A DNA stretch of 64,000 bases. It comes from a virus. Its lineage: Duplodnaviria; Caudoviricetes. The translations under genes and the position numbers were made by a program. The notes beneath the pieces were generated by a model. It saw only the letters and a program-made list of their open reading frames with translations, was not told the DNA's origin and did no database searches. Below, in pieces: positions 5,750 through 29,307 of this stretch; positions within the stretch are counted from its first letter, which is position 1, and the number at the start of each line of letters is the position of its first letter. The DNA lies in the IMG/VR virus record IMGVR_UViG_3300029305_003192, one strand, 5' to 3'.

Positions 5750-5960
5750 GAGAAAAATATATTTATGATTATCAATTCTCAGTTGGGACACCGGACGCCC
5801 GATCACGTCCGGATTCTATATGGTTGTGGTATGACGATCATATAGTCTAGGATTTTAAGATTGGCGTGGTACATACCGACTGCGCCCCAGGGCCGTGGCC
5901 TCCTACCAAAAACCCACGGAATATATCAGGATGACCAAACTGGTCATCCTGATATATTTA
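5750..5960 (+). ncRNA. Putative structured small RNA (kissing loops, anti-SD loop)
   Basis: Promoter-to-terminator unit with no SD-led ORF. Stems at 5791-97/5806-12, 5816-27/5834-45, 5863-70/5879-86 and 5893-98/5914-19. Confidence 0.6.
5920..5958. terminator. Bidirectional intrinsic terminator
   Basis: 18-bp inverted repeat AATATATCAGGATGACCA/TGGTCATCCTGATATATT between convergent units, with a T-tract downstream. Confidence 0.75.
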
Positions 5961-10990: not shown

Positions 10991-11030
10991 CGTAATTTCC
11001 TCCTAGACCGGGTATATATCATATTAGTAG
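10991..11030 (+). promoter_or_regulatory. Early-type phage promoter
   Basis: CGTAATTT-N14-TATATATCATATTAGTAG. Confidence 0.7.
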
Positions 11031-11042
11031 AAATATAAGAGA

Positions 11043-11110
11043 TATCGCTAAGTTATAGGGCACTTAGCGACGTATAAAAATAGCCCTTCATAGTAGGAGG
11101 TAATACTATG
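11043..11110 (+). promoter_or_regulatory. Structured 5' leader (pseudoknot + SD/ATG hairpin), copy 1
   Basis: Nearly identical to 23986-24051. 9-bp stem 11045-53/11062-70; loop AGGGC pairs with GCCCT at 11083-87; CATAGTA/TACTATG hairpin. Confidence 0.75.
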
Positions 11111-11503
11111 AGAAACGTACTTGCAAACGCATTATCGCTCAATATGTTCAACCGTATGGTTCCAATGGATAACGATTATGGATATGCTGGTTTCGGTATA
11201 TCCGTAAAAGAGGTACGTCCAGAGGACGTGCCAAGGGACTGTGTGTCCATTATAGGACACACCGACACCGCTGCGGTGGTGTCATCAATGCTGGGATTTA
11301 ATGTCCCAGCAAACCGAATAGCCCATACAATAGAGAACGGTGACGTTCTCTTTGTGGCCCAGTACACGGGGCCACGACTCCCCGAGGGAGCCTCGAGGCT
11401 CCCTGAAGGAGGCATTATCCGGTTCTACCGGGTAATGGAAGTCGATCCGATACCCGACAACAACGGCTGTATCGGAGAAAGGAGGTTTTTCGTCGGCGAG
11501 TAA
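11108..11503 (+). CDS. acrIII-1: AcrIII-1 family (DUF1874 / STIV B116-like) ring nuclease, anti-type III CRISPR
   Basis: LANALSLNM, SIIGH (catalytic His), NR, VAQ and RLPEG motifs match the SIRV1 gp29/YddF family pattern (LANAFSINM...SIGH...NR...RLEEG). Confidence 0.88.
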   Translation: MRNVLANALSLNMFNRMVPMDNDYGYAGFGISVKEVRPEDVPRDCVSIIGHTDTAAVVSSMLGFNVPANRIAHTIENGDVLFVAQYTGPRLPEGASRLPEGGIIRFYRVMEVDPIPDNNGCIGERRFFVGE

Positions 11504-11517
11504 TTGCCGACGAATAC

Positions 11518-11552
11518 CAATACCAGGAGACGTGTCTCCTGGTATTTTTTTT
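11518..11552 (+). terminator. Intrinsic terminator
   Basis: AATACCAGGAGAC-GT-GTCTCCTGGTATT followed by a T-tract. Confidence 0.8.
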
Positions 11553-11618
11553 GCTTTTAGAAGCACCAATTCCAAAACCTCTATATAATCAATTCCTAAC
11601 AGAAGGAGGTATAATATA

Positions 11619-13493
11619 ATGGCCGATATGAATGCTGTCTATAAAGATAGATTACATAGTAAAGCTGATTATCTGATGCAGTTATCCGACCCTAAGTTGG
11701 CTAATGAATTCATTACAAGTGGAATGCATTGCGAGTATCTTAAAGAGTATACCGATAAAATCGTAAAAGATGATGACGGTATATGTGCCTGGACGCTCAG
11801 AACTATGATGCAGTCTGCTATTGATAACTCCAATATATTATGGAATCAGCCTCGATACCTGGTACCACTTATCAGATATTACGAATCTTTGATTAATACC
11901 CCAGCTATCGGTGGGGTATCTGATTCAGATGGTAGAATGCCAGAGGTTGCTTACCAATACACATTGTGCAAAATATTTAGATGGCTTAGTCCATCTAAAT
12001 TTCTTCAGGCGGTTACTAAGTTTAACCTTGGTAACGATCTGCTGGCAAGCTCATTTACTGAACTTATCAGAAGTGCTGTCGATGCTAATGATGGTGATAA
12101 CTATGAGGATTACACAAGTGACATCGAAGTTCTGCACGAAGTACTCCTTAATGATATCACACCAGTTCACCGTGTCGAGAAAATGTTCCATACCGGTAAT
12201 ATGGGTAATCTTGATATAACACATATTTCTTTTGATGCGTGGGGACTTTCCGATAGAGTACCTGAAGCATCACAGACTCAGGGAGAGCCTTTAATATTTG
12301 GAGATTCCGAGTATAATCTTGCAGTAATTAAACTTCTCTTCCGTGAATATGTAATCTCTGAATGGGACTTATTTGCTAAGAATTCAGATGTCTCCAGATT
12401 CAGCAGGGAAGAACTCAACATCGTTCGTCAGATGTTACAGTCAATGTACAATGTAGAATGTGACGATACATATATTCGTGATAGAGCATTCACTACTATA
12501 GAAATGCTTAGGAACGATACAGAGTATTCGATATTCCCATTAATGCAGACTATGATTCTCGCGGTAGGTAAGTTTATCGAAAGATTCGCTGTAGTATTAT
12601 TCCCAGATATGACTCATAAGGATATGAAGTTTACCCTCAACGTTAGACGTTTCGCTTCTGCAATTACCGATATGAAATCTGGTAGGGAAGCCGAGAAGTA
12701 TGAAGACATTAAAGGTACTATGGAAGGTGCATTACTCGAGCTCGATGAACTCATGCTGGATGAACCAGTTGAAACTGTGGCAAGGGTCATCCCAGTATAT
12801 AATCCTTTTGGTATCATGACAATAGTGCCAGCTACCGAAGCGACCAAAAAGAGCCAGGCTCTCGAGTCCGAACCAGAAACTCGTACGAAGACTCAGCAGA
12901 AGTCAATCGACAAGCGAAATGATAAAGACACCTCACGAGAAGAGCGCTTGCACCAGGCTGCTGCCAATATACGTTCGGGAGTCCGTAAGGGTTATAATGA
13001 CTACAAACGCTATACTGCAAATGCAAAAGCCATCGATACACAGGTTGGTAAGATTTTTAAGAATCTCTCCAAGAAAATCACCAATACTGATGGTGAAAAA
13101 TACCGTGAGGAGATACTCGGTGGTAAGGAACCATCACCACTTAAGGTTCTTGGAAAGGTACTTGCATACGCAGGCGTATTTTCCGCAAACCCGGTACTCG
13201 GCATCATAGCACTGGTAACCAGACATTATAATGGTAAGAAGACAAGACGTGTGGAACGTCGTAAGGCAATGGTCGAGCTTCAGAACGAGATGAAGCTTCT
13301 CGATGAGAAGATTGCCGATGCCCAGGCTGCTGGTGATAGAAAAGCCAAGTATGAACTGATGCGTGTCCGTAACGCATTGGATTCATCATATGATTCAATC
13401 AGGACTAATATGAGTAGAACTCCTGATAAGGATTTGCTTGCTACTAAGAAGTCACTGATTAATGTGGAGGTGAATGCAGGTGGCAACAAGTAA
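11619..13493 (+). CDS. Putative virion head protein (624 aa)
   Basis: Late promoter at 11576; ATEA/ALES motifs before a basic coiled-coil C-terminal region; upstream of the capsid gene. Confidence 0.55.
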   Translation: MADMNAVYKDRLHSKADYLMQLSDPKLANEFITSGMHCEYLKEYTDKIVKDDDGICAWTLRTMMQSAIDNSNILWNQPRYLVPLIRYYESLINTPAIGGVSDSDGRMPEVAYQYTLCKIFRWLSPSKFLQAVTKFNLGNDLLASSFTELIRSAVDANDGDNYEDYTSDIEVLHEVLLNDITPVHRVEKMFHTGNMGNLDITHISFDAWGLSDRVPEASQTQGEPLIFGDSEYNLAVIKLLFREYVISEWDLFAKNSDVSRFSREELNIVRQMLQSMYNVECDDTYIRDRAFTTIEMLRNDTEYSIFPLMQTMILAVGKFIERFAVVLFPDMTHKDMKFTLNVRRFASAITDMKSGREAEKYEDIKGTMEGALLELDELMLDEPVETVARVIPVYNPFGIMTIVPATEATKKSQALESEPETRTKTQQKSIDKRNDKDTSREERLHQAAANIRSGVRKGYNDYKRYTANAKAIDTQVGKIFKNLSKKITNTDGEKYREEILGGKEPSPLKVLGKVLAYAGVFSANPVLGIIALVTRHYNGKKTRRVERRKAMVELQNEMKLLDEKIADAQAAGDRKAKYELMRVRNALDSSYDSIRTNMSRTPDKDLLATKKSLINVEVNAGGNK

Positions 13494-14307
13494 TTTTTTT
13501 GTACAACTCAATGATGCTGAAGAATCGGGCATAATGCCCGATCTGTTCGGCGATGACGATATGTATCCTGCAATGGAAGGTCTCGATGATGACTTAGATA
13601 GACTCGGTCAAGTCGATGGTTCAGCAGAAGCCGAAGCTGAGGCGAGTGCTGATGCTGAAACTGAAGCAGATACCACTGAATCTGAAGAACCTGCGGAAGA
13701 TGATGTTGGTGAAGAAGCTCCAGATGACGAAGGTGGAGAGACCGAAGACCTTGCAGCTGCTACTGATGAACAGCTTGAGGAAGATGGCGAAGCTGTTGAT
13801 ACTTCAGCTACACCAGATGACGAAGGTGGAGACCTTGACACTAACGATGATTCGTCAGATACTGATTTAACAAATACTGCTTCTGACCCGCTTCGTAGTG
13901 TGGCTGTTAAAGAAGCATATCGTACCAAATTCCTGAAACTATATACTATTATTATAGACTCAGTAACCACTATGAATACCTTTACCCCAGAGTATACTAA
14001 CTCTGAGAGTAAGAAGTATTATAGACTTCGTGAACAGCTCAACGAACTCAAGGAACTTATCTACATCATCTGTACTAAGAAGTTATCTGCAATGACAGTC
14101 GATGAAGTTCTTCGTAAGTATTCATTATGTAATATGACATATGATGCTATTACAAATGAGATGAAGGAGTTCATTGAAGCGTATAATAGACAGCAAAAGA
14201 AGGCTCAGACAAAGGACAGAAGCGAGCGTGCTAAAGAGGGTGCTAGACGTATTGCTAGTAGCCTTAATTATGAAAGCATATCGAAACGTCCAAATACAAC
14301 AAAGTAA
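13474..14307 (+). CDS. Acidic head/scaffold-like protein
   Basis: Very D/E-rich N-terminal half with an AMEG motif; immediately upstream of the capsid gene. Confidence 0.5.
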   Translation: MQVATSNFFVQLNDAEESGIMPDLFGDDDMYPAMEGLDDDLDRLGQVDGSAEAEAEASADAETEADTTESEEPAEDDVGEEAPDDEGGETEDLAAATDEQLEEDGEAVDTSATPDDEGGDLDTNDDSSDTDLTNTASDPLRSVAVKEAYRTKFLKLYTIIIDSVTTMNTFTPEYTNSESKKYYRLREQLNELKELIYIICTKKLSAMTVDEVLRKYSLCNMTYDAITNEMKEFIEAYNRQQKKAQTKDRSERAKEGARRIASSLNYESISKRPNTTK

Positions 14308-14429
14308 GTAAAATACACTTTCTCAGTCGTATATTTAGAGTATCTTCACAAATGCTTTAATTAAACAGTCATGTAAATACGATTAGAAACGTATAATAAA
14401 TTCTATAGAAATGAGGAGGAATTTAAACC

Positions 14430-16280
14430 ATGATTAATTCCACAGTAAATTCTCTTGTTGGAACAATGTCACCGGTTGCTGCTTCACAGGCTTTCAAAGA
14501 TGACGTAGCTCACGTTATCCAGTCCTATGATCTGCAGGGCGGCAGTGCCATTGACAACATGCCTGTTATCGCAAGAAACAGCAGATGCCGTAGAGACTTC
14601 GTTGATATGGTAATGGAGTCCGTTGTAAACGATCCACAGCTTGCTTCTGGCGATGCTTCTCAGGATCCATTCTATTCTACATATGCTGACAGACTCGACC
14701 AGCTCCTTGAGAACTCTCTTATGGAAATGGCTCGTGAATCTGTTATGACAGGTTATGCTCCTATCCAGTCTTATGCACCATTCATGCTTAAGAGACAGTG
14801 GGTATCCTGCGTATGGAAGGACGTTCTTGCAGCAGACGTTGCTAAGTCCAATATCATCAAACTTCAGATGGAAGAAAGATGGGTAAAGGATGCTGAAGGT
14901 CAGAGATACAGAATCCCTGATGTATACTACAACAAGGATCTCATGGCTAAGCTCTTCAACGATGCTACAGGTATCAACCTTAAGCACGGCGAAGAAGACT
15001 TTATCGAACTTCCACTCCAGAACGAATGCCTTATCGCTCCTGATAAGAATTACTTCGAATCTGCTATCACTAACCCTAATTCCGAGACACTTACACATGA
15101 TTATACAATCTTTGAAGTAGTATTCGAAATCGGCGGCAAGGAATACAGAGTTCCATGTGATATCAAGCCTGACCTCTCTTCTCACGTACTCATCAACGGC
15201 AACAATGTTAAGTGCGTATACGAAGATGAAAACGGTGAAATCAAGTCCGAAACAGACTCCATTGTTGGTAATGTTGACTTCCAGACAGGTACAGTATCCG
15301 TATTCTCTACAAACGGTCTCATCAAGAAGTTCCGTCACAAGGGCAAGGCTGCTAACCGCTTCAACCACAGATCACTCTCCGTTGAGAGAACAATCAAGCC
15401 GCTCACATTCTACATGCCAGAATCCGGCCCAAGACTCAACGCTGCAGTAACTATCGAAGAAGCTCAGGACGCTATCGTTCTTAATAACACAGACCTCTAC
15501 GCTGATAACACTGATATGATGGGCGACGTTCTCGCTAACCTCCAGGATATCGGCATCAAGTCATTCGTTGAGAACTCCTATGAAGTTCACAGCAAGGCAA
15601 TCCAGGGTCCATTCGGCTATGAAGACAACTTCACAGCTTCCGGTTCCTTCAATGCAGTTCCAATTCAGAACTTCTCCATCGGTATCGACGCTTGGATGAA
15701 CCAGGCTAAGGAATACTTTGAGAGAGTCGTTGAAGAGCTTAAGTATAAGCTCAAGACACCTGACATCATCATCTGTGCTGTATGTCACCCATCTCTCGTA
15801 AGATACCTCAAGGCCGACGTTCGTTGGATCTTCTCTGACCAGACAGATGTATCTGGTGTTAAGCTCGCATACAAGGTTGGTGTTACAAACGCTAACGGCG
15901 ACAGAGTTCACATCATCACATCTACATACATGAGCCCTGAAGACCCAGTAAGACTCATCGTTATCCCAACAACAACTGAATGTATCACATTCAAGCATAT
16001 CATGCACTCCGCTATTATTGACAGAGGTTACCAGAACCCACTCGAGCCACTCGTACCAAACGTAATGGCTACTCAGAGAACTCTTACTTTCGAAGTAACT
16101 CCAGTTCAGGGTACATTCGAGATTACAGGCAGAGCTGGTAATACAAATTACGTGAATGCTAACGGCTTTATGTCCGGTCACGCTCCTAACGAGTACAACG
16201 GCGCATTTGTTGTAAACAACACAACAGCTGGTGGTACAGCAACAGGCGGCACAACTACAGATGAAACAACTGGCGGTTAA
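14430..16280 (+). CDS. Major capsid protein precursor (probable)
   Basis: 616 aa with strong high-expression codon bias, its own late promoter (AACA-GTCATG-TAA at 14364) and terminator, a candidate ARES cleavage site near residue 100, and a position after the protease and scaffold-like genes. Confidence 0.75.
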   Translation: MINSTVNSLVGTMSPVAASQAFKDDVAHVIQSYDLQGGSAIDNMPVIARNSRCRRDFVDMVMESVVNDPQLASGDASQDPFYSTYADRLDQLLENSLMEMARESVMTGYAPIQSYAPFMLKRQWVSCVWKDVLAADVAKSNIIKLQMEERWVKDAEGQRYRIPDVYYNKDLMAKLFNDATGINLKHGEEDFIELPLQNECLIAPDKNYFESAITNPNSETLTHDYTIFEVVFEIGGKEYRVPCDIKPDLSSHVLINGNNVKCVYEDENGEIKSETDSIVGNVDFQTGTVSVFSTNGLIKKFRHKGKAANRFNHRSLSVERTIKPLTFYMPESGPRLNAAVTIEEAQDAIVLNNTDLYADNTDMMGDVLANLQDIGIKSFVENSYEVHSKAIQGPFGYEDNFTASGSFNAVPIQNFSIGIDAWMNQAKEYFERVVEELKYKLKTPDIIICAVCHPSLVRYLKADVRWIFSDQTDVSGVKLAYKVGVTNANGDRVHIITSTYMSPEDPVRLIVIPTTTECITFKHIMHSAIIDRGYQNPLEPLVPNVMATQRTLTFEVTPVQGTFEITGRAGNTNYVNANGFMSGHAPNEYNGAFVVNNTTAGGTATGGTTTDETTGG

Positions 16281-16320
16281 TCCGAGCTGTCTTTCATTTT
16301 AAGGCCTCCATTCATATATA

Positions 16321-16358
16321 GTAAACCCGTAGAACGTTAATTCGTTCTACGGGTTTAC
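16321..16358 (+). terminator. Terminator hairpin after capsid gene
   Basis: GTAAACCCGTAGAACG...CGTTCTACGGGTTTAC. Confidence 0.7.
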
Positions 16359-16417
16359 ACCGTTGTATACCTCAAAACATTCCTTTAATTACATTCATCC
16401 ATAAAAGGAGTGATTAG

Positions 16418-18004
16418 ATGGCTACGGTAATTAGTAACTCGCGTTCAGAGTTCGTTCAGAACGTGATTCGTAACTATACTGAAAATCGTATCGGGCAGTA
16501 TTCTAAATATCTGGATACCGACCCGATATATGTCACATATTACGCAATCAACATGGTTCACAGTAGGGCGGACCCGGGTACTGATGCTATCCAGGATATC
16601 ACCGGCTCATCATCCCCTATAAGATTCAATAAGATTACCAGATTCCCGATATATATCAAGGGAGGATTCGAGCCGGACACTACATTTGAAGATGGTATCA
16701 TCTCCAACGATATTGACCTTAACGAGATTATCATTCTTCCTAATACGCTGACTCCAAGGCCATATGACCATATCTATATCGAACTTCCAAACATGGTTCC
16801 GTTCTTGGTCAGAGTTAATGGCTATAGAAATCTCTCTATTCAGTCGAATGACTTCTTCTCAGCATCTGGTCATGCTGTCAACTTTGGTGAGGATATCACC
16901 AAGGGTATTGATAAGTTGGTAGTCGAGAACTATATATGCGTATTTGAGAATATTGGTACCCAGAATGCATGCTTCATTAGAAGTGAAGATTATGATAATG
17001 CTAATACTTTGGCAGAGGGTATTACCCAGATGACTGAGCTGTACAATGCATTATACTTTAATGATGAGGTAAACTCATATGTGTATAATGAGTCATTCTA
17101 CAATATTCCGAATCTCGTCGATCCGTCTCTTAACTTCCACCACGGCCCGTACGTATTGCCCGGGGTTGAGAGAGTTCATCCAGCAAATCTGCCTGGAATG
17201 ATGCCCGCAATGCTTGCTTCTGCAGAGGTTGCTAAATATAGCAATCCCAAGCCGAGAAAGAGATTCAAGTGTTTTATACGCCCGCATTGTAATATCATGA
17301 CGGATTCAATATACGATATGTATATGACCAAATTCATCATGGAATCAGGGCTCTTCTATAATTCAGACAATTTCGATTCCACATCGGCAATTGTATATGA
17401 AGACCTCGAGCCTCTGATGTTTGACTATAACTTTAAGAGGTCCATCTGGCATGCGGTCATGACCAAGGATACAACACTTCTTGACCCATCTCTTTATTAT
17501 ATACTGACACCTATTCGTAAGGCATACTCAGCATTGTTACTTGCGAGATTCCCGTCTCCTAAGTCATTGAGTATTGTGCGTAATAGCAATGTATGTTGCT
17601 ACGATAACGAGTACTTCTCAACAGAGCTTCTCAATGACCTGAAGTACGGTAGATCTGATAAAGAGACATGTAAGTGCGACCCTGAAGCTGATAGGGCATA
17701 TGTCAACATCGCATCAGTTATCAGTAATCCGAATAAGGACTTTAATAAGGAAGGCATTAGCTTAAAGGAATACTCTGTTAATCCTCCAACCAATGCTGAA
17801 GAAGAACTGACAGATGAAGAGAAGATTATCAAATATATGAATGATATTATCTATAATTATATCAAAGGGCTCAATGTTGAGTTTGATATTGATTATCTCA
17901 TGTCCTCTCTGGCAACTCCATCGATTCATATGTTTGAATACTTCCCATTGATACTTTATATCATGAAAAACCATTATAATGGTTACTTCAAGCAGGTAGC
18001 TTGA
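16418..18004 (+). CDS. Virion structural protein (putative)
   Basis: Late promoter at 16376; lies between the capsid and terminase genes. Confidence 0.5.
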   Translation: MATVISNSRSEFVQNVIRNYTENRIGQYSKYLDTDPIYVTYYAINMVHSRADPGTDAIQDITGSSSPIRFNKITRFPIYIKGGFEPDTTFEDGIISNDIDLNEIIILPNTLTPRPYDHIYIELPNMVPFLVRVNGYRNLSIQSNDFFSASGHAVNFGEDITKGIDKLVVENYICVFENIGTQNACFIRSEDYDNANTLAEGITQMTELYNALYFNDEVNSYVYNESFYNIPNLVDPSLNFHHGPYVLPGVERVHPANLPGMMPAMLASAEVAKYSNPKPRKRFKCFIRPHCNIMTDSIYDMYMTKFIMESGLFYNSDNFDSTSAIVYEDLEPLMFDYNFKRSIWHAVMTKDTTLLDPSLYYILTPIRKAYSALLLARFPSPKSLSIVRNSNVCCYDNEYFSTELLNDLKYGRSDKETCKCDPEADRAYVNIASVISNPNKDFNKEGISLKEYSVNPPTNAEEELTDEEKIIKYMNDIIYNYIKGLNVEFDIDYLMSSLATPSIHMFEYFPLILYIMKNHYNGYFKQVA

Positions 18005-18053
18005 GTTAACAACCATATAAATCGAAACTATCACTACGAAAGGAATGATATAC

Positions 18054-18482
18054 ATGATTAAGTTAGATATCTTTGATACAGACGACTCTATCTTCGAATC
18101 TGGACTGAGAGATGATGCATATGGCGTTATTGAACTCGGTCTTGGTGTTGAAGGTGCAGTGAACCCAGATATTGATGATTCTGAACTTATCGATGATGAT
18201 CCAGATGATACTGGTGACCTCGAAGGCGAAGACGTTGTTGCTGGTGTTGATGACGACCCAGACCCAGAAGAATATGAAGACGATGACTATGACGATGCCG
18301 TGAACGACGTTCTTGTAGACGAAGATGACGATGATGATATCGACATTGATGCTGCAATGGAAGCTCTCGACGTCATTGACCCAGTAAACTGTGCGTTCAA
18401 CGACGACCTTGATCTCGAAAACGTTACAGCATATTCACTTTTCGACAGCGGACTTACGCTCGAAGATGAATATAACGTATAA
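18054..18482 (+). CDS. Highly acidic small protein (possible head propeptide/scaffold)
   Basis: Late promoter at 18008; Asp-rich; AMEA motif. Confidence 0.55.
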   Translation: MIKLDIFDTDDSIFESGLRDDAYGVIELGLGVEGAVNPDIDDSELIDDDPDDTGDLEGEDVVAGVDDDPDPEEYEDDDYDDAVNDVLVDEDDDDDIDIDAAMEALDVIDPVNCAFNDDLDLENVTAYSLFDSGLTLEDEYNV

Positions 18483-18488
18483 GTAATT

Positions 18489-18522
18489 ATTATCCCATTA
18501 CCTATATAGGTAATGGGATAAT
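18489..18522. repeat. Palindrome family member (ATCCCATTACC...GGTAATGGGAT)
   Basis: 34-bp perfect palindrome; same arms at 23893-23927 and 28911-28937. Confidence 0.8.
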
Positions 18523-18528
18523 TTACAC

Positions 18529-18560
18529 CGTAATTTCCGTATATACTGCATATATATCAT
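18529..18560 (+). promoter_or_regulatory. Early-type phage promoter
   Basis: CGTAATTT-N14-TATATATCAT. Confidence 0.7.
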
Positions 18561-18643
18561 AACATTGTACAAGAAGTAGCAAACGGCTATGGATGTACAT
18601 AGTTTAGGGCCACTGATGACGGTGGCAGAAAGGAGGCATCATT

Positions 18644-18991
18644 ATGATGTCCGAAATGTATAATTCTTATAATAAGGTGATCGCAATTATCGACAATGTG
18701 TTCAACACGTTTGTATCCTCTTCCGAAGAGGATAAGTATATTGCTAGTGTTAACCGCGCTAGCTTTACACTTAACGCTCCACAGATCCTTATGGATCTTG
18801 AGAGGATTGGTGCAATGAGTGCCGATGACATCGAAGGTTTCGTGCCGAAGTATGTCGAAAACTTTAGCTCTGCTTATAAGCAGAGCTTTATCGTGAGCAG
18901 TGGTTTCGGGGAAGCTACCGCATCTCGATATTCTCATCAGGCAGCTTCCAGCATGATGGAAATTATTGACAGTTATCTCGCAATGAGATAA
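18644..18991 (+). CDS. Hypothetical accessory protein (115 aa), stand-alone cassette
   Basis: Own promoter, AAGGAGG SD and terminator hairpin with T-tract at about 18999-19029. Confidence 0.75.
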   Translation: MMSEMYNSYNKVIAIIDNVFNTFVSSSEEDKYIASVNRASFTLNAPQILMDLERIGAMSADDIEGFVPKYVENFSSAYKQSFIVSSGFGEATASRYSHQAASSMMEIIDSYLAMR

Positions 18992-19083
18992 CTGTCGAAT
19001 CGGGGTCGCTTCGGTGGCCTCGATTTTTTGCTCAAATATGTCCCTAGACAATTTCATAACCTTGAATGAAAGGAGGATATAAC

Positions 19084-21429
19084 TTGGCTACTATTATAAA
19101 TGATTCCAAGGTCAGGGTATTTAGAGATTATCATCCGGACTTAGATGATGATAATCATAAGCATGTCCCTCCGATGAATTTGGAATCCGATATAGGAACT
19201 ATGTCCAAGGATATGGAACAGGTTGTAGCTACTACTCTTCATGAGCATAAAGAAGCTATGACTGAATTCGATAGAAAGAATAACAAGAAGAAGAAACTGT
19301 ATCAATGGACCACTAGGAATAAAAGCTTCATTGAATTACATAATGACCTTAAGGTACTTGGGGTGAAAAATAATAAATTCTTCCTCAGATTATATGATGA
19401 AACTCTGATGGATATTGACCCCTATGCACTGGTAGTACCACCGGAAATACAGGCTCGTATCATTATCGAATGTATCCGTAACCCATGGTATTTCTTACGA
19501 GAAATATGCCGTATCCCAGTAGATGGTAAACCTATCTGTCCTGGTGGTGGTACATCATTCATTGCCGATAGAAATAATATCGCTACATGGTATCTTTTTT
19601 TGAATGGTATTGACCATTACTCATCAAAGCCTCGTCAGAGAGGTAAGACACAGGACGCCCTTGCTAAACTCAATTATAGCTTCCACTTCGGATGTACATC
19701 TGCGACCATTACATTGGCTAATAAAGACTTCACTCTTAATAAGATGAATCTTAGCCGACTAAAGACCCAAAGAGACATGTTGCCTTTATATCTTCAGATG
19801 AAATTATCTATCGACCAGACCACTGGTAAGGTTGAGAAGGAACAGAATAACGTACTCTCTATGGGTAATCCTATTAACTTTAATAAGATTCAGTTGCTTC
19901 CATCTGCATCTACAAGTGCTAAAGCACAGTCTGTAGGACGAGGTGTTACATCTGCTATCGTAATGTATGATGAGTTTGACTGGATGCCATATAACATGGA
20001 TATCTACTACGCGTCATCATTCTCATATAAGACAGCGTCTGATAATGCTAAGAAGAATATGTCACTCTATGGACGTATATTCACATCTACCCCTGGTAAT
20101 ATGGAAACCAAGGAAGGTCAGAATGCTGATATATTCATCAATGGTGATACTGATAATGATAACCATGGTCGTCCAATGCTCAAGTGGAAGGATAATTACT
20201 TCGACCTTCCTATCGAGAAGCTTAAGAGTATAGTAAACTCTAAATCGTATAACGGTATCGTCTACGTCGAACATACGTGGCAACAGCTTAAGTGCGATAA
20301 TAAATGGTATGAGGAAGCATGTCGAGGTGTTAACTATAACCCTGAGCAGATTGCTCGTGAAATTCTGCTTAAGAGACTTAGGGGTTCTTCCAAGTCACCG
20401 TTTAAGAGAACTCAACTCATGGGACTTCTTAACAATGTCGAGAGTCCTATTGATGAGGTGGACTATACTGATAACCTCTGCCCATTCTTCTTCTATGAGA
20501 AGCTTAATAAGCGAACCCCATACCTTATTGCAATCGACCCCGCTGAAGGTCTCAGCGGAGACAACCTTGCTGTGGTGGGCATAAGCCCGTTTACTGAGAA
20601 GGTAGCATTCGAATTCAAGACCCCATATATCAATCAGACTAAGATGGCTAAAATATTGGTCAAGTTCATGGACAACTTCTGTCCAAGAGGATTGATTATT
20701 ATCGAAAACAACCGAGGACGAGAACTTATCAACCAATTACTTCTTACGAAGTACGCCGACCACTTATGGTATGATACAGATAAGCTTGATAAGAAAGAAA
20801 CTATCAATACAAAAGATCTTGACCCTGAAGCAGAACGAGCGATTGGTTGGAATACTAGTCCGAAAACTCGTCCGATGATGATGGCAACTCTTGAGACTAT
20901 TGTAGTCGAAAGCCCTGAGAAGGCTAATAGTAAATTCGTAGTGGACGATATCTGCTCACTTGAAAGAGTCAATGGTTCTATTAAGGCTGCACCTGGCAAG
21001 CACGACGACGTCGCTTTAGCATTTTCCATGGGTCATACAGTTTATCGTACTGCCACCAATTTAAGTAACTGGGGTATTTATCCGGGCATGAAAGAAGCCC
21101 CGAATCTTGACCCTAGCGACCCACAATATAAAAAGAATGCCCTTGCTGCACTCATGGAATATCTGCCAGATGATCTTAAACAGATATTTGTCAGGGGTGT
21201 TAAGAAGGATGTCAATACTGATAATTCATCGATCAGAAGTAGTATCGAACGTGAAGCTGCTATGATTCATATGCAGGAAGTTGCTAGGAAATCACAGTTT
21301 GATGAAGATGCTGTCGATGAGACGATGATTGATAATGATGAGTTGTATGAAGAGGTATCAATGGATGAATTCTATAACCAGGCGGTATATAATCCAGATG
21401 CTAACCTCGACTTATCAGACTACTTTTAA
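19084..21429 (+). CDS. terL: Terminase large subunit
   Basis: Walker A KPRQRGKT, Walker B VMYDEF, motif III TSTPG, nuclease IDPAEG...HDD. Probable TTG start at 19084 after AGGAGG; late promoter at 19047. Confidence 0.92.
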   Translation: MATIINDSKVRVFRDYHPDLDDDNHKHVPPMNLESDIGTMSKDMEQVVATTLHEHKEAMTEFDRKNNKKKKLYQWTTRNKSFIELHNDLKVLGVKNNKFFLRLYDETLMDIDPYALVVPPEIQARIIIECIRNPWYFLREICRIPVDGKPICPGGGTSFIADRNNIATWYLFLNGIDHYSSKPRQRGKTQDALAKLNYSFHFGCTSATITLANKDFTLNKMNLSRLKTQRDMLPLYLQMKLSIDQTTGKVEKEQNNVLSMGNPINFNKIQLLPSASTSAKAQSVGRGVTSAIVMYDEFDWMPYNMDIYYASSFSYKTASDNAKKNMSLYGRIFTSTPGNMETKEGQNADIFINGDTDNDNHGRPMLKWKDNYFDLPIEKLKSIVNSKSYNGIVYVEHTWQQLKCDNKWYEEACRGVNYNPEQIAREILLKRLRGSSKSPFKRTQLMGLLNNVESPIDEVDYTDNLCPFFFYEKLNKRTPYLIAIDPAEGLSGDNLAVVGISPFTEKVAFEFKTPYINQTKMAKILVKFMDNFCPRGLIIIENNRGRELINQLLLTKYADHLWYDTDKLDKKETINTKDLDPEAERAIGWNTSPKTRPMMMATLETIVVESPEKANSKFVVDDICSLERVNGSIKAAPGKHDDVALAFSMGHTVYRTATNLSNWGIYPGMKEAPNLDPSDPQYKKNALAALMEYLPDDLKQIFVRGVKKDVNTDNSSIRSSIEREAAMIHMQEVARKSQFDEDAVDETMIDNDELYEEVSMDEFYNQAVYNPDANLDLSDYF

Positions 21430-21499
21430 TTTCAATATCTCTATTAACATGCCTATAAATTAATCATTCTATAATGTGAAGAAAGTCGGTGGATAAATA

Positions 21500-22264
21500 A
21501 TGTATGATGATTACTCAATGGACGGTATTGAAGACCTTCTTGATTTCTTCGATACCGAACGAACTGCCAAAACTATCGAGCAGCAGATAATGACCGATGA
21601 GTTCGGTCTTGATGCACCGATCGACTATTATAGGCCATACTATACCAAGTTTAAAACACTTGAAGTTGATATCGATAATGGTATCACCGAAAGTATGGTA
21701 TCTACTTGCCGCCATAAGGCAAAAGTAATTGCATTGATGTTTATTGAAGCAATACTGAAGAAGTTCAATCTTCATATCGATGAATTCTGGATTGATAATA
21801 TGGATGAAGCTCAGTTACAGGGTGTCACCATTGTACTCTATGATTTCTTCATACTTCATTTACGTGAATATCTCCTCGAGGTAATCACGCGTTACATTGA
21901 TGCTAACAGTAAGATGCTTGCGGACCAGTTCGAGCATAATCCTAGAATTGCTCGCGATGCATCTCTTTCTGCATTCCTCAAAGTCGTTGATGAGGACTAT
22001 GCGGTTATCGGAGCAAACGTTTATGATGTGTGCTTCCTGACCCTTAATAATCTCAACGAGATTGAATATATCAATCATATCAATGCAGATAACGAAATCC
22101 AACCACATATTAAAAGATTCTTCGAAGAGGGTAAAATCTCCGGTAACTTCATCGATGTTCTCGAGCAGATGATGGCTGATGTTTCAAACGGTCTTAAGAG
22201 CCATATGGGATTCGAAATCGTTGCTTATATTAAGAGAGCTCATGCTAAGAATCTTAATCATTAA
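21500..22264 (+). CDS. Hypothetical protein (254 aa)
   Basis: Late promoter at 21446; long ORF. Confidence 0.75.
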   Translation: MYDDYSMDGIEDLLDFFDTERTAKTIEQQIMTDEFGLDAPIDYYRPYYTKFKTLEVDIDNGITESMVSTCRHKAKVIALMFIEAILKKFNLHIDEFWIDNMDEAQLQGVTIVLYDFFILHLREYLLEVITRYIDANSKMLADQFEHNPRIARDASLSAFLKVVDEDYAVIGANVYDVCFLTLNNLNEIEYINHINADNEIQPHIKRFFEEGKISGNFIDVLEQMMADVSNGLKSHMGFEIVAYIKRAHAKNLNH

Positions 22265-22276
22265 TGAAAGGACTGA

Positions 22277-22582
22277 ATGAATATGGCTAGAGCTACTATT
22301 CAGAACATCTTCACTCAGCGTGAAGTAATCCATAAGCTCAGAGTCGAATCAGATAATCTCGATAACACTACACGTCAGATGGCTGATGACTACTGTGATA
22401 TGGTTGCACAGATTCGTAAGAGGACCATCAGTAACCCAAATTCTACTACAGTGAAGTATGCTGGTAATCCTAACAAACTCGGGCTCGTATCCAAAGTTTC
22501 TTCAGTAGGAACTATCAATACATTCCCTGAACTGATTCAGTATGCTGAGAAGGTTATTAAACTTATCAAGAATGCTAAGTGA
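22277..22582 (+). CDS. Hypothetical protein (101 aa)
   Basis: In operon with flanking genes; codon usage like neighbours. Confidence 0.7.
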   Translation: MNMARATIQNIFTQREVIHKLRVESDNLDNTTRQMADDYCDMVAQIRKRTISNPNSTTVKYAGNPNKLGLVSKVSSVGTINTFPELIQYAEKVIKLIKNAK

Positions 22583-22616
22583 TAACTAAACTTAATTTCA
22601 TAGGAGGACTACCAAC

Positions 22617-23888
22617 ATGCAGGAAACTAATGAAGCACGCGGGCTGACAGAGCCCGTTAATACACAAATGGAGGAGACCGAGACAGCTACCGCTGCTATG
22701 TGTCTCGATGACCCGAAAGATATTCCAACGGTTGAGTTGACTACCACAAATGATAAGCTGGTAATCACTCATGATAATCCGCTGGTTGAAGCGGTTCTCA
22801 GAAAAGCTTATGAGAACGGTATTCCAGTTGAAGTAGTTAAGGATGTCGAAGACGTCGTTAACGAATTCAGCAAGAAGACTAAGATTGAGCTCGTTATGGC
22901 TAAGAGAGAAATCGAAAATTATAATGGTCTCAAGGAACTTGCAGCAGGACTTGCGGAATCAAGTAAGTCGATGTCAGCAACATCCAAGGCACTTACGGAT
23001 TTCATTGAACCGAATTTCAATTTCGATGAAAACGAGAACGAATCCGACGCTGCCGAGAGTATTGAAGAGCCGGAATCTGAACCTGAGGACGAACTTGCTA
23101 ACGAGATTGATGGTATGTATAAGACTCTTGAGAACGATATTGCAATCGCTAATATTGCATACGATGTCGTTTATCAGAAGTATATGGAAGACCATCCAAA
23201 TACCACCGTATATGATGACCTTCTTGAGAAGCTTCTGAAGGATAAGGCAACTCTTGAGTCCGGTAATAATATTAATGCACCAAAGCTCATTGCATGCATC
23301 GATGATGTTATTGCTTGTATGCAGAAGAATGACCTCGAGGCACTCCTCGTACCATTCCATACAAAGACTGATAATCAGAAGAGACTTCGTATTCTTGCGA
23401 AGGAACTTATCAATGTCAAGCGTCCAGTTTACCGTGACCTCGAGACTATCGGTATTACTCAGGAGCATATCGTGAAGTTTATTAACTTCTTTATTACCGA
23501 GGCAAACTTCCGTGAGACATATGCAACGGGACCTATTGGTTTCCCAGATACACGTCTTATTCCAAACATCTGTCTCTTCTTCTTATATCATCTCTGTAAG
23601 ATTATTACTAACTCTCGTAAGAGAGCTACATATGAGACTCTTAAGTATCGTCTCGCATTCATGCATGTCATTGACGTAGTGGATACGTATCCATCCACTA
23701 CCAAGACATTCACTGAGAACAGATTCATTGGTGATGCAACTAATGAGAATGCTGAGCCTACAGAGCTCTCAATTGCTCGTGCAAAGGTATATGATACATT
23801 CGTACCACTTCTTATGAAGTACTTTGGTGCGATGAATGACCAGACATTGGTTAAGTATTCAGTAGCACAGGCAAGAAAGACAAAGTAA
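22617..23888 (+). CDS. Hypothetical protein (423 aa)
   Basis: AGGAGG SD; acidic N-terminal half. Confidence 0.8.
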   Translation: MQETNEARGLTEPVNTQMEETETATAAMCLDDPKDIPTVELTTTNDKLVITHDNPLVEAVLRKAYENGIPVEVVKDVEDVVNEFSKKTKIELVMAKREIENYNGLKELAAGLAESSKSMSATSKALTDFIEPNFNFDENENESDAAESIEEPESEPEDELANEIDGMYKTLENDIAIANIAYDVVYQKYMEDHPNTTVYDDLLEKLLKDKATLESGNNINAPKLIACIDDVIACMQKNDLEALLVPFHTKTDNQKRLRILAKELINVKRPVYRDLETIGITQEHIVKFINFFITEANFRETYATGPIGFPDTRLIPNICLFFLYHLCKIITNSRKRATYETLKYRLAFMHVIDVVDTYPSTTKTFTENRFIGDATNENAEPTELSIARAKVYDTFVPLLMKYFGAMNDQTLVKYSVAQARKTK

Positions 23889-23892
23889 AAAT

Positions 23893-23927
23893 ATTATCCC
23901 ATTACCCTTCAAGGGTAATGGGATAAT
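23893..23927. repeat. Palindrome family member / terminator
   Basis: ATTATCCCATTACCCTT-C-AAGGGTAATGGGATAAT. Confidence 0.8.
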
Positions 23928-23933
23928 TTATGC

Positions 23934-23973
23934 CGTGATTTTAGAGATAAGTGCATATATATTATATTAGTAG
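23934..23973 (+). promoter_or_regulatory. Early-type phage promoter
   Basis: CGTGATTT-N14-TATATATTATATTAGTAG. Confidence 0.7.
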
Positions 23974-23985
23974 CAATAAAGGAAG

Positions 23986-24051
23986 TATCGCTAAGTTATA
24001 GGGCACTTAGCGACGTATAAAATAGCCCTTCATACTGGAGGTAATAGTATG
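23986..24051 (+). promoter_or_regulatory. Structured 5' leader (pseudoknot + SD/ATG hairpin), copy 2
   Basis: Matches 11043-11092 except for one A; CATACT/AGTATG hairpin. Confidence 0.75.
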
Positions 24052-24336
24052 AAAGAATCCGTTGTTACAAGAACCGTAATATTTGTCAATCCAGAAAGAT
24101 TGACATTCGACACATCTATCAAAGATGTGTTGAAAAAGACAGGAAACGCGTTTGTGCAGTTACTTGATAACGAAGATAACGTAGCTGATACGGCGCGTGC
24201 GATTCGAGCAAACCTCGCAGATCATACATCTGCAGGAAAGAGCCCGGTTAATGTTGTGCTTTCCGGATTCGACTACGACCCGGAAATTCTCGAGGCAATC
24301 GAGAAAAATGGTTGTAAGCTTATCTGGGCTTGCTAA
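24049..24336 (+). CDS. Hypothetical accessory protein (95 aa), small alpha/beta fold
   Basis: GGAGG SD, own promoter and terminator, and the same leader as acrIII-1. Confidence 0.75.
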   Translation: MKESVVTRTVIFVNPERLTFDTSIKDVLKKTGNAFVQLLDNEDNVADTARAIRANLADHTSAGKSPVNVVLSGFDYDPEILEAIEKNGCKLIWAC

Positions 24337-24342: not shown

Positions 24343-24409
24343 AAACAGCACCGCCAAGTAATCATACTTGGCGGTTTTGGAATTACCTTGGCGGTGCTGT
24401 TTTTTTTTT
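24343..24409. terminator. Terminator with alternative nested hairpins
   Basis: AAACAGCACCGCCAAG...CTTGGCGGTGCTGTTT followed by a T-tract, with a second internal CTTGGCGG copy. Confidence 0.7.
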
Positions 24410-25421
24410 ATACTTCCTTGTAGATATAATGTCTCTGAAGGTGGTCAACTGCGGTATTTGCACGATAGTTAATCTCGAATTGGATATCATTCGGATTTTC
24501 AGGAACTGGGTAATCCGGGATAGGTTCACCATCCTGGTCTACCGCATATACATTCCAGTCCTCAGTATTAGTATTAAACTCGGCGACTAAATCGACATGC
24601 TGGCCTTCATACTTAAGATACTTATCGCCATCATTACCGGCTCTCTTACTGTCATAATCTTCAGAGTACTGCTCGCCGATATCATCCATTGAATCATTAT
24701 CATCTTCATCATAATCTGCACCGGAGAATTCTTCACGTCCTCCAACATCTCCGATGAGGTGCTGGTGACCCATACCGAAGAGCTGCTGCATGATATTGTT
24801 AGTAATAAGAGATTCATCTGTACCACCAACATTCTTATCGAGCTTAGCTTTAAGCTCAATCTTAGTCTTTGCGATATTATTGAGTTCTTTGAGTACACTC
24901 ACTCTTGCAGTATGAAGTGATGTCTTCTGCCCGGCAAGTTCGGCCGTCTTAATAGCAGAACGGTTAAATCCTGTACCGCGGAGATTCTCGAGGTCTTTCT
25001 CGAGCTTAGCACTATCCTTATGCATTTCTGCGAGGATGTTACGAAGCTCCTGCTCATTAGCAGCAAACGCTCTGTCAATCTCGTTTTCACTTTCAGATAC
25101 GGCGTTAGTTCGTGCATATTTACGACCCATACCGATGAGTGCAGACTTGAGTTCAAGATCCTCATCATCTACGTCGATAGTATCAATCAATGCATCGAAG
25201 TCCTCTTCCTGAAGACCTCCATACTTAGCAAGTTTCTTATCAAGGTCATCCAGAAGTAACTTAGGGTCGTCAATGCTGGTATGTGATTCTGAATCGAGAA
25301 ACTTTGGAAGTTTCTTTGATTTTTTATCTTTCTTAGGTGTAACTACTTCGACTTCAGGAGCATCTCCTGAGAGGGATGATGATGCAACGAGTTGTCGAAG
25401 TCCATCCAATGTACTACTCAT
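24408..25421 (-). CDS. Hypothetical protein (coiled-coil, acidic)
   Basis: Start MSSTLDG at 25421 (SD AAGGAGG); late promoter at 25451-25463 (minus). Confidence 0.75.
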   Translation of the reverse strand: MSSTLDGLRQLVASSSLSGDAPEVEVVTPKKDKKSKKLPKFLDSESHTSIDDPKLLLDDLDKKLAKYGGLQEEDFDALIDTIDVDDEDLELKSALIGMGRKYARTNAVSESENEIDRAFAANEQELRNILAEMHKDSAKLEKDLENLRGTGFNRSAIKTAELAGQKTSLHTARVSVLKELNNIAKTKIELKAKLDKNVGGTDESLITNNIMQQLFGMGHQHLIGDVGGREEFSGADYDEDDNDSMDDIGEQYSEDYDSKRAGNDGDKYLKYEGQHVDLVAEFNTNTEDWNVYAVDQDGEPIPDYPVPENPNDIQFEINYRANTAVDHLQRHYIYKEV

Positions 25422-25565
25422 GATTGATTCCTCCTTATGAAATAAAATCATTAGACGGTTGTTTTCGGATGCTATTTCGTCAGAAGTTATGAGAGTATAT
25501 ATCATAGTGCAGTATAATACGGTTGCCACTGAACCGGTAAAAGTGGCTTGGCGAAAGGAGTACTT

Positions 25566-28215: not shown

Positions 28216-28905
28216 ATGGCATATAAGTTGACATTCCCACTTGATGAATTTAAGAAGATGAATTCGATGCTCACAGAGTACTACTCAGAGTATTTCATTG
28301 ATGATAAATCAGGATTGATTATGGGTACAAGTTTGAACGAGTATGCGTTTAATATAGCTACCATATCTCCCGATCTTTTATCAAAGTTATCTCTGGGCTC
28401 AGTTCTTCTTCATCCTAATTACATGCGTAAGCAAGTGGGTGACCTTAAGAAGACAATGACATACGTGTACAATGACAATGATGTATTCCGTGTGTATGAA
28501 TTCGAGGATAAGATAAAAGATATACCAGATATGACCAAGGGCAAATTGGTAGTATCGTTAATTCATCATGAAGAGAACTCTATGGATGCAAATGCTATTC
28601 ATATGCGAGATATTACCAACAGGATTAAGCCGTATGGCGAATATCTGAATCAGCATCTGGAATTCGAAGATATTCCACGACCATACTACATGTCTCAGTT
28701 TATAGCTAACGATATATTATCTCTGGAAGACGATGATGGTGGTCATCTTATAGTAACACGTCAGATGTTTCCAAAGTATCAAAGGGTTGATGGTATTTCG
28801 TGGACGTCCGTCAATCTAGATGATGAGTTCCGATTGGGTATATTTGAGACAAAACACCCCATTCTAACGATGTATACATTCGTCAAGTATCTACGAGGCA
28901 TTTAA
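28216..28905 (+). CDS. Hypothetical protein (229 aa)
   Basis: Closely follows the polymerase gene. Confidence 0.75.
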   Translation: MAYKLTFPLDEFKKMNSMLTEYYSEYFIDDKSGLIMGTSLNEYAFNIATISPDLLSKLSLGSVLLHPNYMRKQVGDLKKTMTYVYNDNDVFRVYEFEDKIKDIPDMTKGKLVVSLIHHEENSMDANAIHMRDITNRIKPYGEYLNQHLEFEDIPRPYYMSQFIANDILSLEDDDGGHLIVTRQMFPKYQRVDGISWTSVNLDDEFRLGIFETKHPILTMYTFVKYLRGI

Positions 28906-28910
28906 TTAAT

Positions 28911-28937
28911 ATCCCATTACCATTATGGTAATGGGAT
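28911..28937. repeat. Palindrome family member
   Basis: ATCCCATTACCAT-T-ATGGTAATGGGAT. Confidence 0.75.
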
Positions 28938-28976
28938 GAACTATTCAAGCATGACCCATAACAGGAGGTAAAAGTT

Positions 28977-29231
28977 ATGGCAAATATTTATATATGTACA
29001 GACCGCCAGCCTGTGAGTGAAGAATTCTCTAAGAGCGTCGCTGGCGTATCTCTTTTACTCAAAAGGAGTAAAGTTGATGGTAAGCTCGCTGTTATCAGCG
29101 CAGCGAGCGGTGAGATCCTTTGGGTGACGACGGCCATCCAGCATGAGGAACGAGACGTACCTGGTACTGATCTCGTTATCGTGACGGCGAATTCCAAATA
29201 TACATTTAGAAAGATTGGTGAAACAGTATAA
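28977..29231 (+). CDS. Small hypothetical protein (84 aa)
   Basis: AGGAGG SD; beta-rich with a TANSKY motif; terminator at about 29246-29274. Confidence 0.7.
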   Translation: MANIYICTDRQPVSEEFSKSVAGVSLLLKRSKVDGKLAVISAASGEILWVTTAIQHEERDVPGTDLVIVTANSKYTFRKIGETV

Positions 29232-29272
29232 TCTCACCAATCTCCTCACCCGCCAATTGGTGGGTGATTTTT

Positions 29273-29301
29273 TTGCTATAAATCGATACAAAGAGTATAA
29301 T
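29273..29301 (+). promoter_or_regulatory. sigmaA/sigma70-type promoter
   Basis: TTGCTA-N17-TATAAT. Confidence 0.55.
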
Positions 29302-29307
29302 GATATC

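Follow-up and report, generated by a model that had tools for sequence, protein, structure and literature searches.

A two-copy leader RNA with a probable pseudoknot and a start-codon hairpin in front of acrIII-1 and an unrelated gene of a jumbo phage

DNA-shielding jumbo phages are still exposed to RNA-guided type III CRISPR systems. The 5' untranslated regions (5'-UTRs) of anti-CRISPR (acr) genes contain structured RNA motifs that are bound by anti-CRISPR-associated (Aca) proteins, and this control can reach neighbouring counter-defence operons (PMC13551039). The pseudoknot at the 5' end of gene 32 of phages T4 and T2 is an autogenous translational operator (PMC3014915, PMC535899); T4 gp32 nucleates on it, and another protein, RegA, represses many initiation regions (PMC3014915). 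Firmicute mRNAs have 5' stabilisers that counter RNase J1 and RNase Y, and what these share is a strong Shine–Dalgarno (SD) sequence together with an occluded 5' region (PMC3997798, PMC5737220). Here, we describe a structured leader that occurs twice in a 64,000-nucleotide (nt) stretch of viral DNA (Duplodnaviria; Caudoviricetes; IMG/VR record IMGVR_UViG_3300029305_003192), the whole of which is called the window below. One copy lies in front of a gene of the AcrIII-1 ring-nuclease family and the other in front of a gene encoding an orphan protein of 95 amino acids (aa). The motif has covariation support, lies outside Rfam and fronts an anti-CRISPR gene that has no Aca regulator nearby.

The element is best read as a cis-acting structured 5' leader RNA of ~80 nt, made from a phage-specific promoter (the promoter and the transcript start are both putative). 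Together they would form a portable promoter–leader–open reading frame (ORF)–terminator cassette, used for two fast-evolving accessory genes in one jumbo-phage lineage. In the predicted order of the leader, ~15 unpaired purine-rich nt are followed by an H-type pseudoknot, a spacer of 0–1 nt and a start-codon hairpin of 7–9 base pairs (bp).

Architecture of the two leader copies

The two copies of the element, at 11043–11092 (50 nt) and 23986–24034 (49 nt), were nearly identical, the sole difference being one A in a linker (A5 in the former and A4 in the latter). Its 26-nt core, TCGCTAAGT-TATAGGGC-ACTTAGCGA, was found exactly twice in the 64-kb window, against an expectation of 0 from 100 shuffles. 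Copy 1 precedes the DUF1874/AcrIII-1 gene and copy 2 precedes the gene of the 95-aa orphan, and these two genes are non-homologous. A first-pass annotation, made by a model from the sequence alone, had described both the repeat and the unrelatedness of the downstream genes in this way, and our comparisons agree with it on both points. Minimum free energy (MFE) folding by RNAfold gave the same two hairpins for both leader copies. The parts of the leader are listed below (S1, stem 1; S2, pseudoknot stem; H3, initiation hairpin; L1, L2 and L3, pseudoknot loops).

11029–11044, + strand: purine-rich 5' segment of copy 1, beginning at the putative transcript start; unpaired in the MFE fold and moderately conserved
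11045–11070, + strand: stem-loop 1 of copy 1, with the 9-bp S1, TCGCTAAGT/ACTTAGCGA, at 11045–11053/11062–11070 and the loop TATAGGGC at 11054–11061 (MFE fold, covariation)
11057–11087, + strand: pseudoknot S2 of copy 1, AGGGC at 11057–11061 with GCCCT at 11083–11087, and L3 at 11071–11082 (12 nt) (covariation, duplex energy)
11088–11111, + strand: initiation hairpin H3 of copy 1, arms 11088–11095/11104–11111, the SD sequence GGAGG in the loop at 11096–11103 and the ATG at 11108–11110 in the 3' arm (MFE fold)
23988–24013, + strand: stem-loop 1 of copy 2, S1 at 23988–23996/24005–24013 and loop at 23997–24004 (repeat, MFE fold, covariation)
24000–24029, + strand: pseudoknot S2 of copy 2, AGGGC at 24000–24004 with GCCCT at 24025–24029, and L3 at 24014–24024 (11 nt) (covariation, duplex energy)
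24030–24052, + strand: initiation hairpin H3 of copy 2, arms 24030–24036/24046–24052, the SD sequence in the loop and the ATG at 24049–24051 (MFE fold)

The transcript start was placed at the end of the conserved promoter block, just after a conserved TTAGT, and with a start at this point S1 would begin ~15–16 nt from the 5' end. The purine-rich 5' segment was also considered as a CsrA-type or STAB-SD site; this was rejected, as GGA or AAGGA is missing in copy 1 and in the leader of the related contig L013.

In the pseudoknot, L1 places 3 nt over the 5-bp S2, L3 places 11–12 nt over the 9-bp S1, and L2 has a length of 0. Judged from established pseudoknot geometry, these loops are sterically able to cross the grooves, and the zero length of L2 permits coaxial stacking of S1 and S2. 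On the predicted fold, S1, S2 and H3 can stack as a nearly continuous rod. The duplex energy of S2 is about −9.5 kcal/mol. A 5-nt Watson–Crick complement between loop and linker arises by chance with a probability of ~0.04 in random linkers; on the window alone, therefore, the pseudoknot is a suggestion that needs comparative support, which is supplied by the diverged contig L126 described below.

The arms of H3 are TCATAGTA/TACTATGA in copy 1 and TCATACT(G)/(T)AGTATGA in copy 2, with one G-C to C-G swap between the copies. The stability of this hairpin is −9.3 kcal/mol in copy 1 and lies between −6 and −10 kcal/mol across the leaders. Every copy displays GGAGG in the H3 loop, at a distance of 7 nt upstream of the AUG. 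The GCCCU 3' strand of S2 ends 8–9 nt before the SD sequence, and the two do not overlap. We found no conserved alternative pairing among the leaders, and the fold looks static.

Covariation among related leaders

Ten leaders were obtained from related metagenomic contigs that encode orthologues of the two cargo proteins. Those of acrIII-1 came from contigs L013–L019, whose orthologues have 69–71% aa identity, and those of the 95-aa gene came from L001–L005 (56–73%) and from L126 (52%). The promoter motif and the same leader architecture were present in every member of the set. In a model-guided alignment of the ten leaders, standard pairs occupied 99.5% of the cells, compared to 28–48% when the partners were slid. 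Double changes were observed in 11 pairs, covering all the helices, and this was reached by none of 500 shuffles of the same alignment. A MAFFT alignment prepared without L126 gave the same outcome for S1 and H3.

In S1, 100% of the cells were paired, 5 of the 9 pairs had double changes and 2 pairs had G·U variants. This stem reads CTGATAAGA/TCTTATCAG in L003 and CUGGUAUGA/UCGUAUCAG in L126; in these two leaders 4–5 pairs are altered in a compensatory fashion, and it is the loop and not the arms that is most conserved. The leaders of L002 and L019 have one change each, either G-C to G·U or U-A to U·G. Double changes were found in 4 of the 8 pairs of H3, for which at least six different arm sequences exist among the leaders (CAUAGUA/UACUAUG, CAUACU/AGUAUG, CAUAAUC/GAUUAUG, CGUAACAA/UUGUUAUG and GCCAUA/UAUGGC are among them); in all of the leaders the loop carries the SD sequence and the 3' arm carries the AUG.

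The pseudoknot pairing AGGGC/GCCCU is invariant in nine leaders. In the tenth, L126, the loop is AAUGGGGU and S2 is formed by GGGGU/ACCCC at the same spacing (L3 of 11 nt), which amounts to double changes in 2 of the 5 pairs, both terminal (A-U to G-C and C-G to U-A) and both confined to this leader. The GGG/CCC core of the pseudoknot is invariant and L1 is near-invariant; H3 and distal S1, by comparison, drift. L126 also differs at 5 of the 11 positions of L3 (CGUAUAAAAUA to CGUACUUCACA) and in L1 (UAU to AAU), and such a number of changes with the structure kept suggests selection on shape more than on sequence. The first-pass annotation had called for a covariance model as a check; the model built with L126 left out (R1) recovered this leader with 35.6 bits (E 3e-5).

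The G·U and U·G variants, which occur in S1 (L002, L019 and L126) and in H3, become A·C mismatches on the opposite strand. As these wobbles pair only as + strand RNA, selection acts on the + strand RNA and not on a DNA palindrome. From these comparisons, we regard S1 and H3 as very probably real RNA helices. The pseudoknot S2 is, in our estimate, probably real, and it is given this lower grade because its covariation comes from a single diverged lineage. The 9-bp stem whose loop AGGGC pairs with a downstream GCCCU had been proposed in the first-pass annotation, as had the hairpin with the SD sequence in the loop, the AUG in the stem and a compensatory change between the copies. Covariation backs the former as an H-type pseudoknot, with moderate support for S2 from L126 only; the latter is borne out by the MFE fold and by covariation on the + strand.

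Cargo genes, cassettes and distribution of the leader

The remaining features of the two units are as follows.

10991–11028, + strand: promoter-like motif, copy 1 (CCGTAAT, 16 nt, TATATATCATATTAGT); 4 copies in the window, kept in relatives
11108–11503, + strand: cargo 1, gene of a 131-aa DUF1874/STIV_B116-like protein, an AcrIII-1-type ring nuclease by Pfam and PDB alignments
11519–11546, + strand: intrinsic terminator closing the acrIII-1 cassette, a 12-bp stem followed by a T8 run
23893–23927, strand unassigned: terminator hairpin ATTATCCCATTACC...GGTAATGGGATAAT upstream of cassette 2; recurs in the window, kept in L003, L004 and L126
23934–23971, + strand: promoter-like motif, copy 2, of the same motif family
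24049–24336, + strand: cargo 2, gene of the 95-aa orphan (P0001), with a minimal beta-alpha-beta Rossmann-like fold in the AlphaFold2 (AF2) model
24345–24410, strand unassigned: terminator structures closing cassette 2, convergent with a − strand gene at 24408–25529

Cargo 1 scored 31.1 bits against PF08960 (cutoff 26), and in its PDB matches (AFV3-109, 2X4I, 6SCF and STIV B116) the IGH..TA motif was aligned and kept. These two results place it in the AcrIII-1 ring-nuclease family, which upholds the earlier acrIII-1 assignment, and ring-nuclease activity is predicted for it. It has 113 homologues. For cargo 2, no match was found in Pfam or PHROG, and exhaustive searches returned only 4–5 homologues, all in related phage contigs. 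Its AF2 model has a predicted local distance difference test (pLDDT) score of 80 and the topology b-a-b-a-b-a-b. The structural matches of this model are generic only: the best Foldseek E-value is 0.01, and the VIA matches (Z ≤8.1), which include the Argonaute MID domain, LacI/PBP lobes and the CARF proteins Cam1 (Z 6.5) and Can2 (Z 6.1), are all within the noise band. Cargo 2 was rejected as an Aca-like regulator; it has no helix-turn-helix (HTH) and its fold is a generic Rossmann-like one.

Nucleotide identities were uneven along the cassettes. Relative to L013, L017 and L019, identity is 92–96% for the protease and 624-aa genes on the flanks, 82–89% for the leader-bearing intergenic region and only 73–80% for the acrIII-1 coding sequence. 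In the comparison with L126, it is 92% for the neighbouring 423-aa gene, 70% for the intergenic region and 61% for the 95-aa gene. The divergence of L126 begins upstream of the leader, and its leader diverged alongside the cargo with all three helices kept. Both cargoes thus evolve much faster than the backbone or are exchanged. Such divergence suggests diversifying selection or cassette replacement and is typical of arms-race genes, which makes the 95-aa orphan a candidate counter-defence gene. The first-pass annotation had called both of them anti-defence genes. This stands for cargo 1 through its AcrIII-1 family membership, and is not established for cargo 2, a fast-evolving Rossmann-like orphan.

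The bipartite promoter-like motif has four copies in the window, at 5712, 10991, 18529 and 23934. The same motif lies ahead of the leader in all the relatives, and also occurs in the distant relatives L022, L127 and L129; it bears no resemblance to the sigma-70 consensus. We infer that it is a phage-specific promoter. With this motif in front and terminators directly after each gene, each unit can be taken as a self-contained, monocistronic cassette. The ATTATCCCATTACC..GGTAATGGGATAAT terminator hairpin recurs at 18489–18522 and at ~28910–28940, and this hairpin and the promoter motif make up a repeated block at several cassette borders that is reminiscent of the promoter-early stem-loop (PeSL) elements of T4-type phages.

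Searches for the leader elsewhere were mostly negative. With Rfam 15, there was no match at the gathering score in the whole window, and the best sub-threshold matches over 11000–11130, even at E ≤10, had 12–22 bits against cutoffs of 30–89. This agrees with the earlier remark that the architecture recalls small pseudoknot riboswitches but matches no known one. The exact 26-mer had no match in IMG/VR viral contigs. A degenerate pattern, TATAGGGC-N13-18-AAATAGCCCT, had 4 matches in viral contigs and 101 in metagenome contigs; all of these matches were without stem 1 and were discarded as chance. In GTDB genome contigs, the 18-mer core had two single chance matches and no multiples of the kind seen in CRISPR arrays, and the idea of a CRISPR-repeat mimic (an RNA anti-CRISPR) was dropped on this test, which is a weak one. 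Viral contigs were also searched with the proteins of 624, 423 and 95 aa as anchors, and no relatives were found. The pseudoknot leader was not present at 32 other phage DUF1874/acrIII-1 loci.

In the distant relatives L022 and L127–L129 (AcrIII-1 identity 52–56%), acrIII-1 lies in another genomic context, with the same promoter class and a different leader of two plain hairpins. This second class of leader consists of a GGAAUGU..ACAUUCC hairpin followed by a short hairpin directly before AGAAAGGAG; it is found at 9880–10003 in L022, 5895–6003 in L127 and 20–132 in L129, and a similar type is at 18567–18646 in the window. Its second hairpin covaries (GUGGC/GCCAC to GCGGC/GCCGC). The window promoter at 18529 has a leader of this second type at a 115-aa gene upstream of the terminase, with a GCCAC/GUGGC hairpin directly before AGAAAGGAGG. 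In L022 (9250–9990) and L127 (5255–5890), a hairpin-rich region of ~750 nt with no ORF lies between gyrase genes upstream and the acrIII-1 cassette downstream. As acrIII-1 has other leaders and many of its loci are without this one, the pseudoknot leader is not tied to acrIII-1; within a modular expression system it is one of two or more leader classes that can stand in for each other, and it is not widespread.

Weaker hairpins whose loop holds the SD sequence and whose 3' arm holds the AUG were observed at small genes at 28977 (+ strand; 28960–28983, CCATAAC-AGGAGGTAAAA-GTTATGG), 48718 (− strand), 60121 (− strand) and 2764 (− strand). A covariance-model match at 28896–28985 (27 bits) was examined as a third copy and rejected: it combines a terminator hairpin with an SD-loop hairpin, and the pseudoknot is impossible there. 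It is an analogous layout and not a third copy.

The window belongs to a jumbo-phage contig of ~239.6 kb, which is found repeatedly in metagenomes of ruminant gut and of goat origin. Its phage genes include those for the capsid, prohead protease, terminase and B-family DNA polymerase, and an ORF of 3396 aa. Among GenBank phages, the Bacillus jumbo phages BpSp and Goe21 have the closest terminases (31% identity), and phiKZ-like phages come next; blastn against GenBank phages gave no nucleotide match. The lineage is that of an AR9/phiKZ-related jumbo phage. The host is probably a Firmicute, a judgement that draws only on the strength of the SD sites and on the closest terminases.

Three further stretches of the window were recorded. 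The promoter-motif copy at 5712–5749 (+ strand) is followed by ~170 nt without a credible + strand ORF (5712–5960), which have a GC-rich hairpin at 5791–5812, end at a strong 19-bp terminator with a T-run (5919–5959) and have no Rfam match; this stretch is a candidate small non-coding RNA. An ORF-free region of ~830 nt (29232–30060) separates a terminator from the 3396-aa gene. At 2393–2764 (− strand), adjoining the DNA polymerase, a 123-aa protein is encoded that has a weak match to the Acb2/Tad1 hairpin domain (14.5 bits, cutoff 27), and its orthologue in L013 has an Acb2/Tad1 label in precomputed data. This protein may be a cyclic-nucleotide sponge.

Readings of the leader and its relation to known systems

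The reading that we favour, though we would give it somewhat less than an even chance, is a constitutive leader module that would shield the 5' region of the mRNA and set the rate of translation initiation. In such a module, the pseudoknot would hide the AU-rich linker and form a mechanically robust block near the 5' end, and this block could guard the message from 5'-end-dependent decay by enzymes of the RNase J/Y type. The 30S subunit would dock on the exposed SD sequence of the start-codon hairpin, whose stability of −6 to −10 kcal/mol might then fix the initiation rate. The protection against 5' exonucleases suggested in the first-pass annotation would be compatible with this leader anatomy. 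The different leader of acrIII-1 in the distant relatives, the second-type leader at 18529 and the other SD-loop hairpins point to a generic role and not to a ligand-specific one. Several observations weigh against the constitutive module. The covariation of S2 rests on one diverged lineage, L126. The ~15 unpaired nt before S1, counted from the putative start, exceed what classical 5'-terminal stabilisers have. For stabilisation a plain hairpin would be enough; the presence of a pseudoknot in addition, in which the GGG/CCC core is invariant and L1 nearly so, hints at a more specific role. A hairpin of −6 to −10 kcal/mol over the AUG should also reduce translation, and this suits a regulated operator no less well than a constitutive leader.

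Such an operator, recognised through the pseudoknot and/or the SD hairpin by a trans-acting RNA-binding protein of phage or host that co-regulates both cassettes, is the main rival and a serious one, though on the unlikely side. One leader ahead of two unrelated genes, a pseudoknot core that is nearly invariant while H3 and distal S1 drift, and an AUG sequestered in an operator-type hairpin are all consistent with it, and precedents exist in Aca2 and Aca1 on acr 5'-UTR hairpins, in the gp32 pseudoknot of T4 and in RegA. However, there is no aca-like gene (HTH or ribbon-helix-helix (RHH)) in or beside the cassettes, both of which are monocistronic; ~30 ORFs of the window, which is 64 kb of the ~240-kb genome, gave no HTH, RHH or RNA-binding family in Pfam; the 95-aa protein is Rossmann-like and not an HTH protein; and in L126 the sequence changes in S1, L1, L3 and the ends of S2 with the structure kept. 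The narrower form of this idea, a dedicated post-transcriptional operator of a small counter-defence regulon (AcrIII-1 and the 95-aa protein) that is read by a trans factor other than Aca or HTH proteins or, less likely, by a type III CRISPR nucleotide signal, we consider doubtful. That the promoter-leader block is chiefly a recombination substrate for gene swapping, a PeSL-like mobile regulatory cassette in which the RNA fold is incidental, is improbable as a full account. It would explain the recurrence of terminator-promoter blocks at cassette borders (4 copies of the promoter motif and 3 of one terminator hairpin), cargoes that are far more diverged (61–80% nt identity) than their flanks (92–96%), and the differing genome contexts of acrIII-1 among relatives. 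Compensatory changes in three helices, on the other hand, indicate selection on the RNA fold itself, and the leader of L126 diverged with its cargo, to 70% identity where the upstream gene has 92%, so that the leader is not simply a conserved recombination arm. A recombinational role may coexist with the cassette reading; alone, it leaves the covariation unexplained.

The preQ1, SAM-II and guanidine-III riboswitch classes are of similar size and have the H-type topology. A ligand-responsive switch had been put forward in the first-pass annotation, and a riboswitch of this small pseudoknot type, tuning ring-nuclease translation in response to a metabolite or to a signalling nucleotide such as cA4 or cA6, would suit the size and topology of the element, its position directly upstream of the ribosome-binding site (RBS), and the predicted degradation of cyclic oligoadenylates by cargo 1. 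We nevertheless find it very unlikely. It has no Rfam match even at E ≤10; the 3' strand of S2 is clear of the SD sequence and no conserved alternative pairing was seen; L3, the would-be pocket, is not conserved (CGUAUAAAAUA becomes CGUACUUCACA in L126, and L1 also changes); and the motif is limited to one phage lineage, is missing at 32 other acrIII-1 loci and is replaced by another leader at acrIII-1 of the distant relatives. We give still less credence to a DNA-level operator, in which the 9-N8-9 inverted repeat, just past the promoter, would be bound by a dimeric repressor, with all else conserved only as a remnant of recent duplication. The palindrome is perfect and lies at about +17 to +42 from the promoter block, and Aca proteins do bind inverted repeats in acr promoters (PMC13551039), which was counted in its favour. 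But the G-T and T-G wobbles are found on the + strand only and break the DNA symmetry with RNA pairing kept, L003 and L126 alter 4–5 stem pairs in a compensatory way with the loop better conserved than the arms, and the covariation of the pseudoknot and of H3 is meaningless at the level of DNA.

The timing and manner of ring-nuclease production matter for the outcome of infection. By sharing its leader with acrIII-1, the orphan is marked as a candidate counter-defence protein. Should the fold prove to stabilise the mRNA or to gate translation, it would be a transferable expression part, and a handle for finding more accessory or anti-defence cassettes in uncultured jumbo phages. A dedicated operator, if true, would be a new RNA-level control layer for anti-CRISPR expression; a merely constitutive leader would be a tidy but ordinary case of modular phage gene expression.

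Compared with described systems, the leader can be taken, from its sequence and covariation, as a new RNA motif that is restricted to one lineage and belongs to a familiar kind, that of structured translational leaders with a pseudoknot. It resembles the acr-aca 5'-UTR motifs bound by Aca2 and Aca1 in being a conserved RNA structure in an anti-CRISPR leader, in that the same motif may stand ahead of more than one counter-defence unit, and in that control would act on translation or the mRNA (PMC13551039). It differs from them in having a pseudoknot with an RBS hairpin in place of a plain hairpin, or a pair of them, of DNA-operator origin, and in having no aca (HTH/RHH) gene in or beside the cassettes. 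With the gene 32 pseudoknot of T4 and T2 (PMC3014915, PMC535899), it shares the phage H-type fold, coaxial stems, a position upstream of the RBS and an A/U-rich stretch 3' of stem 1. The pseudoknot of T4 gene 32, however, lies ~67 nt upstream and nucleates cooperative binding of gp32 over an unstructured RBS, whereas the one described here abuts a structured RBS hairpin, its cargoes are not single-stranded DNA-binding proteins and two unrelated genes are served.

The Firmicute stabilisers of ermC, aprE, cryIIIA (STAB-SD) and hbs (PMC3997798, PMC5737220) are likewise transferable and have a 5'-proximal structure with a strong SD sequence. Their expected effect, a block to decay of the RNase J1 type, would be expected here by analogy, although each of them consists of a simple stem-loop or an SD-like site right at the 5' end and the present structure is a pseudoknot that probably begins ~15 nt in. 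The preQ1-I/II, SAM-II and guanidine-III riboswitches are similar in size (~45 nt), topology, the A-rich L3 of most copies and location next to the RBS, and differ by the lack of a covariance-model match, the SD sequence outside S2, the L3 that is not conserved and the extremely narrow distribution. As with the T4-type PeSLs (PMC2839356, PMC4122927), repeated promoter and stem-loop blocks flank variable accessory ORFs among core genes; PeSLs combine an early promoter with a terminator and act via recombination, whereas the element of this jumbo phage is a transcribed leader with covarying RNA helices.

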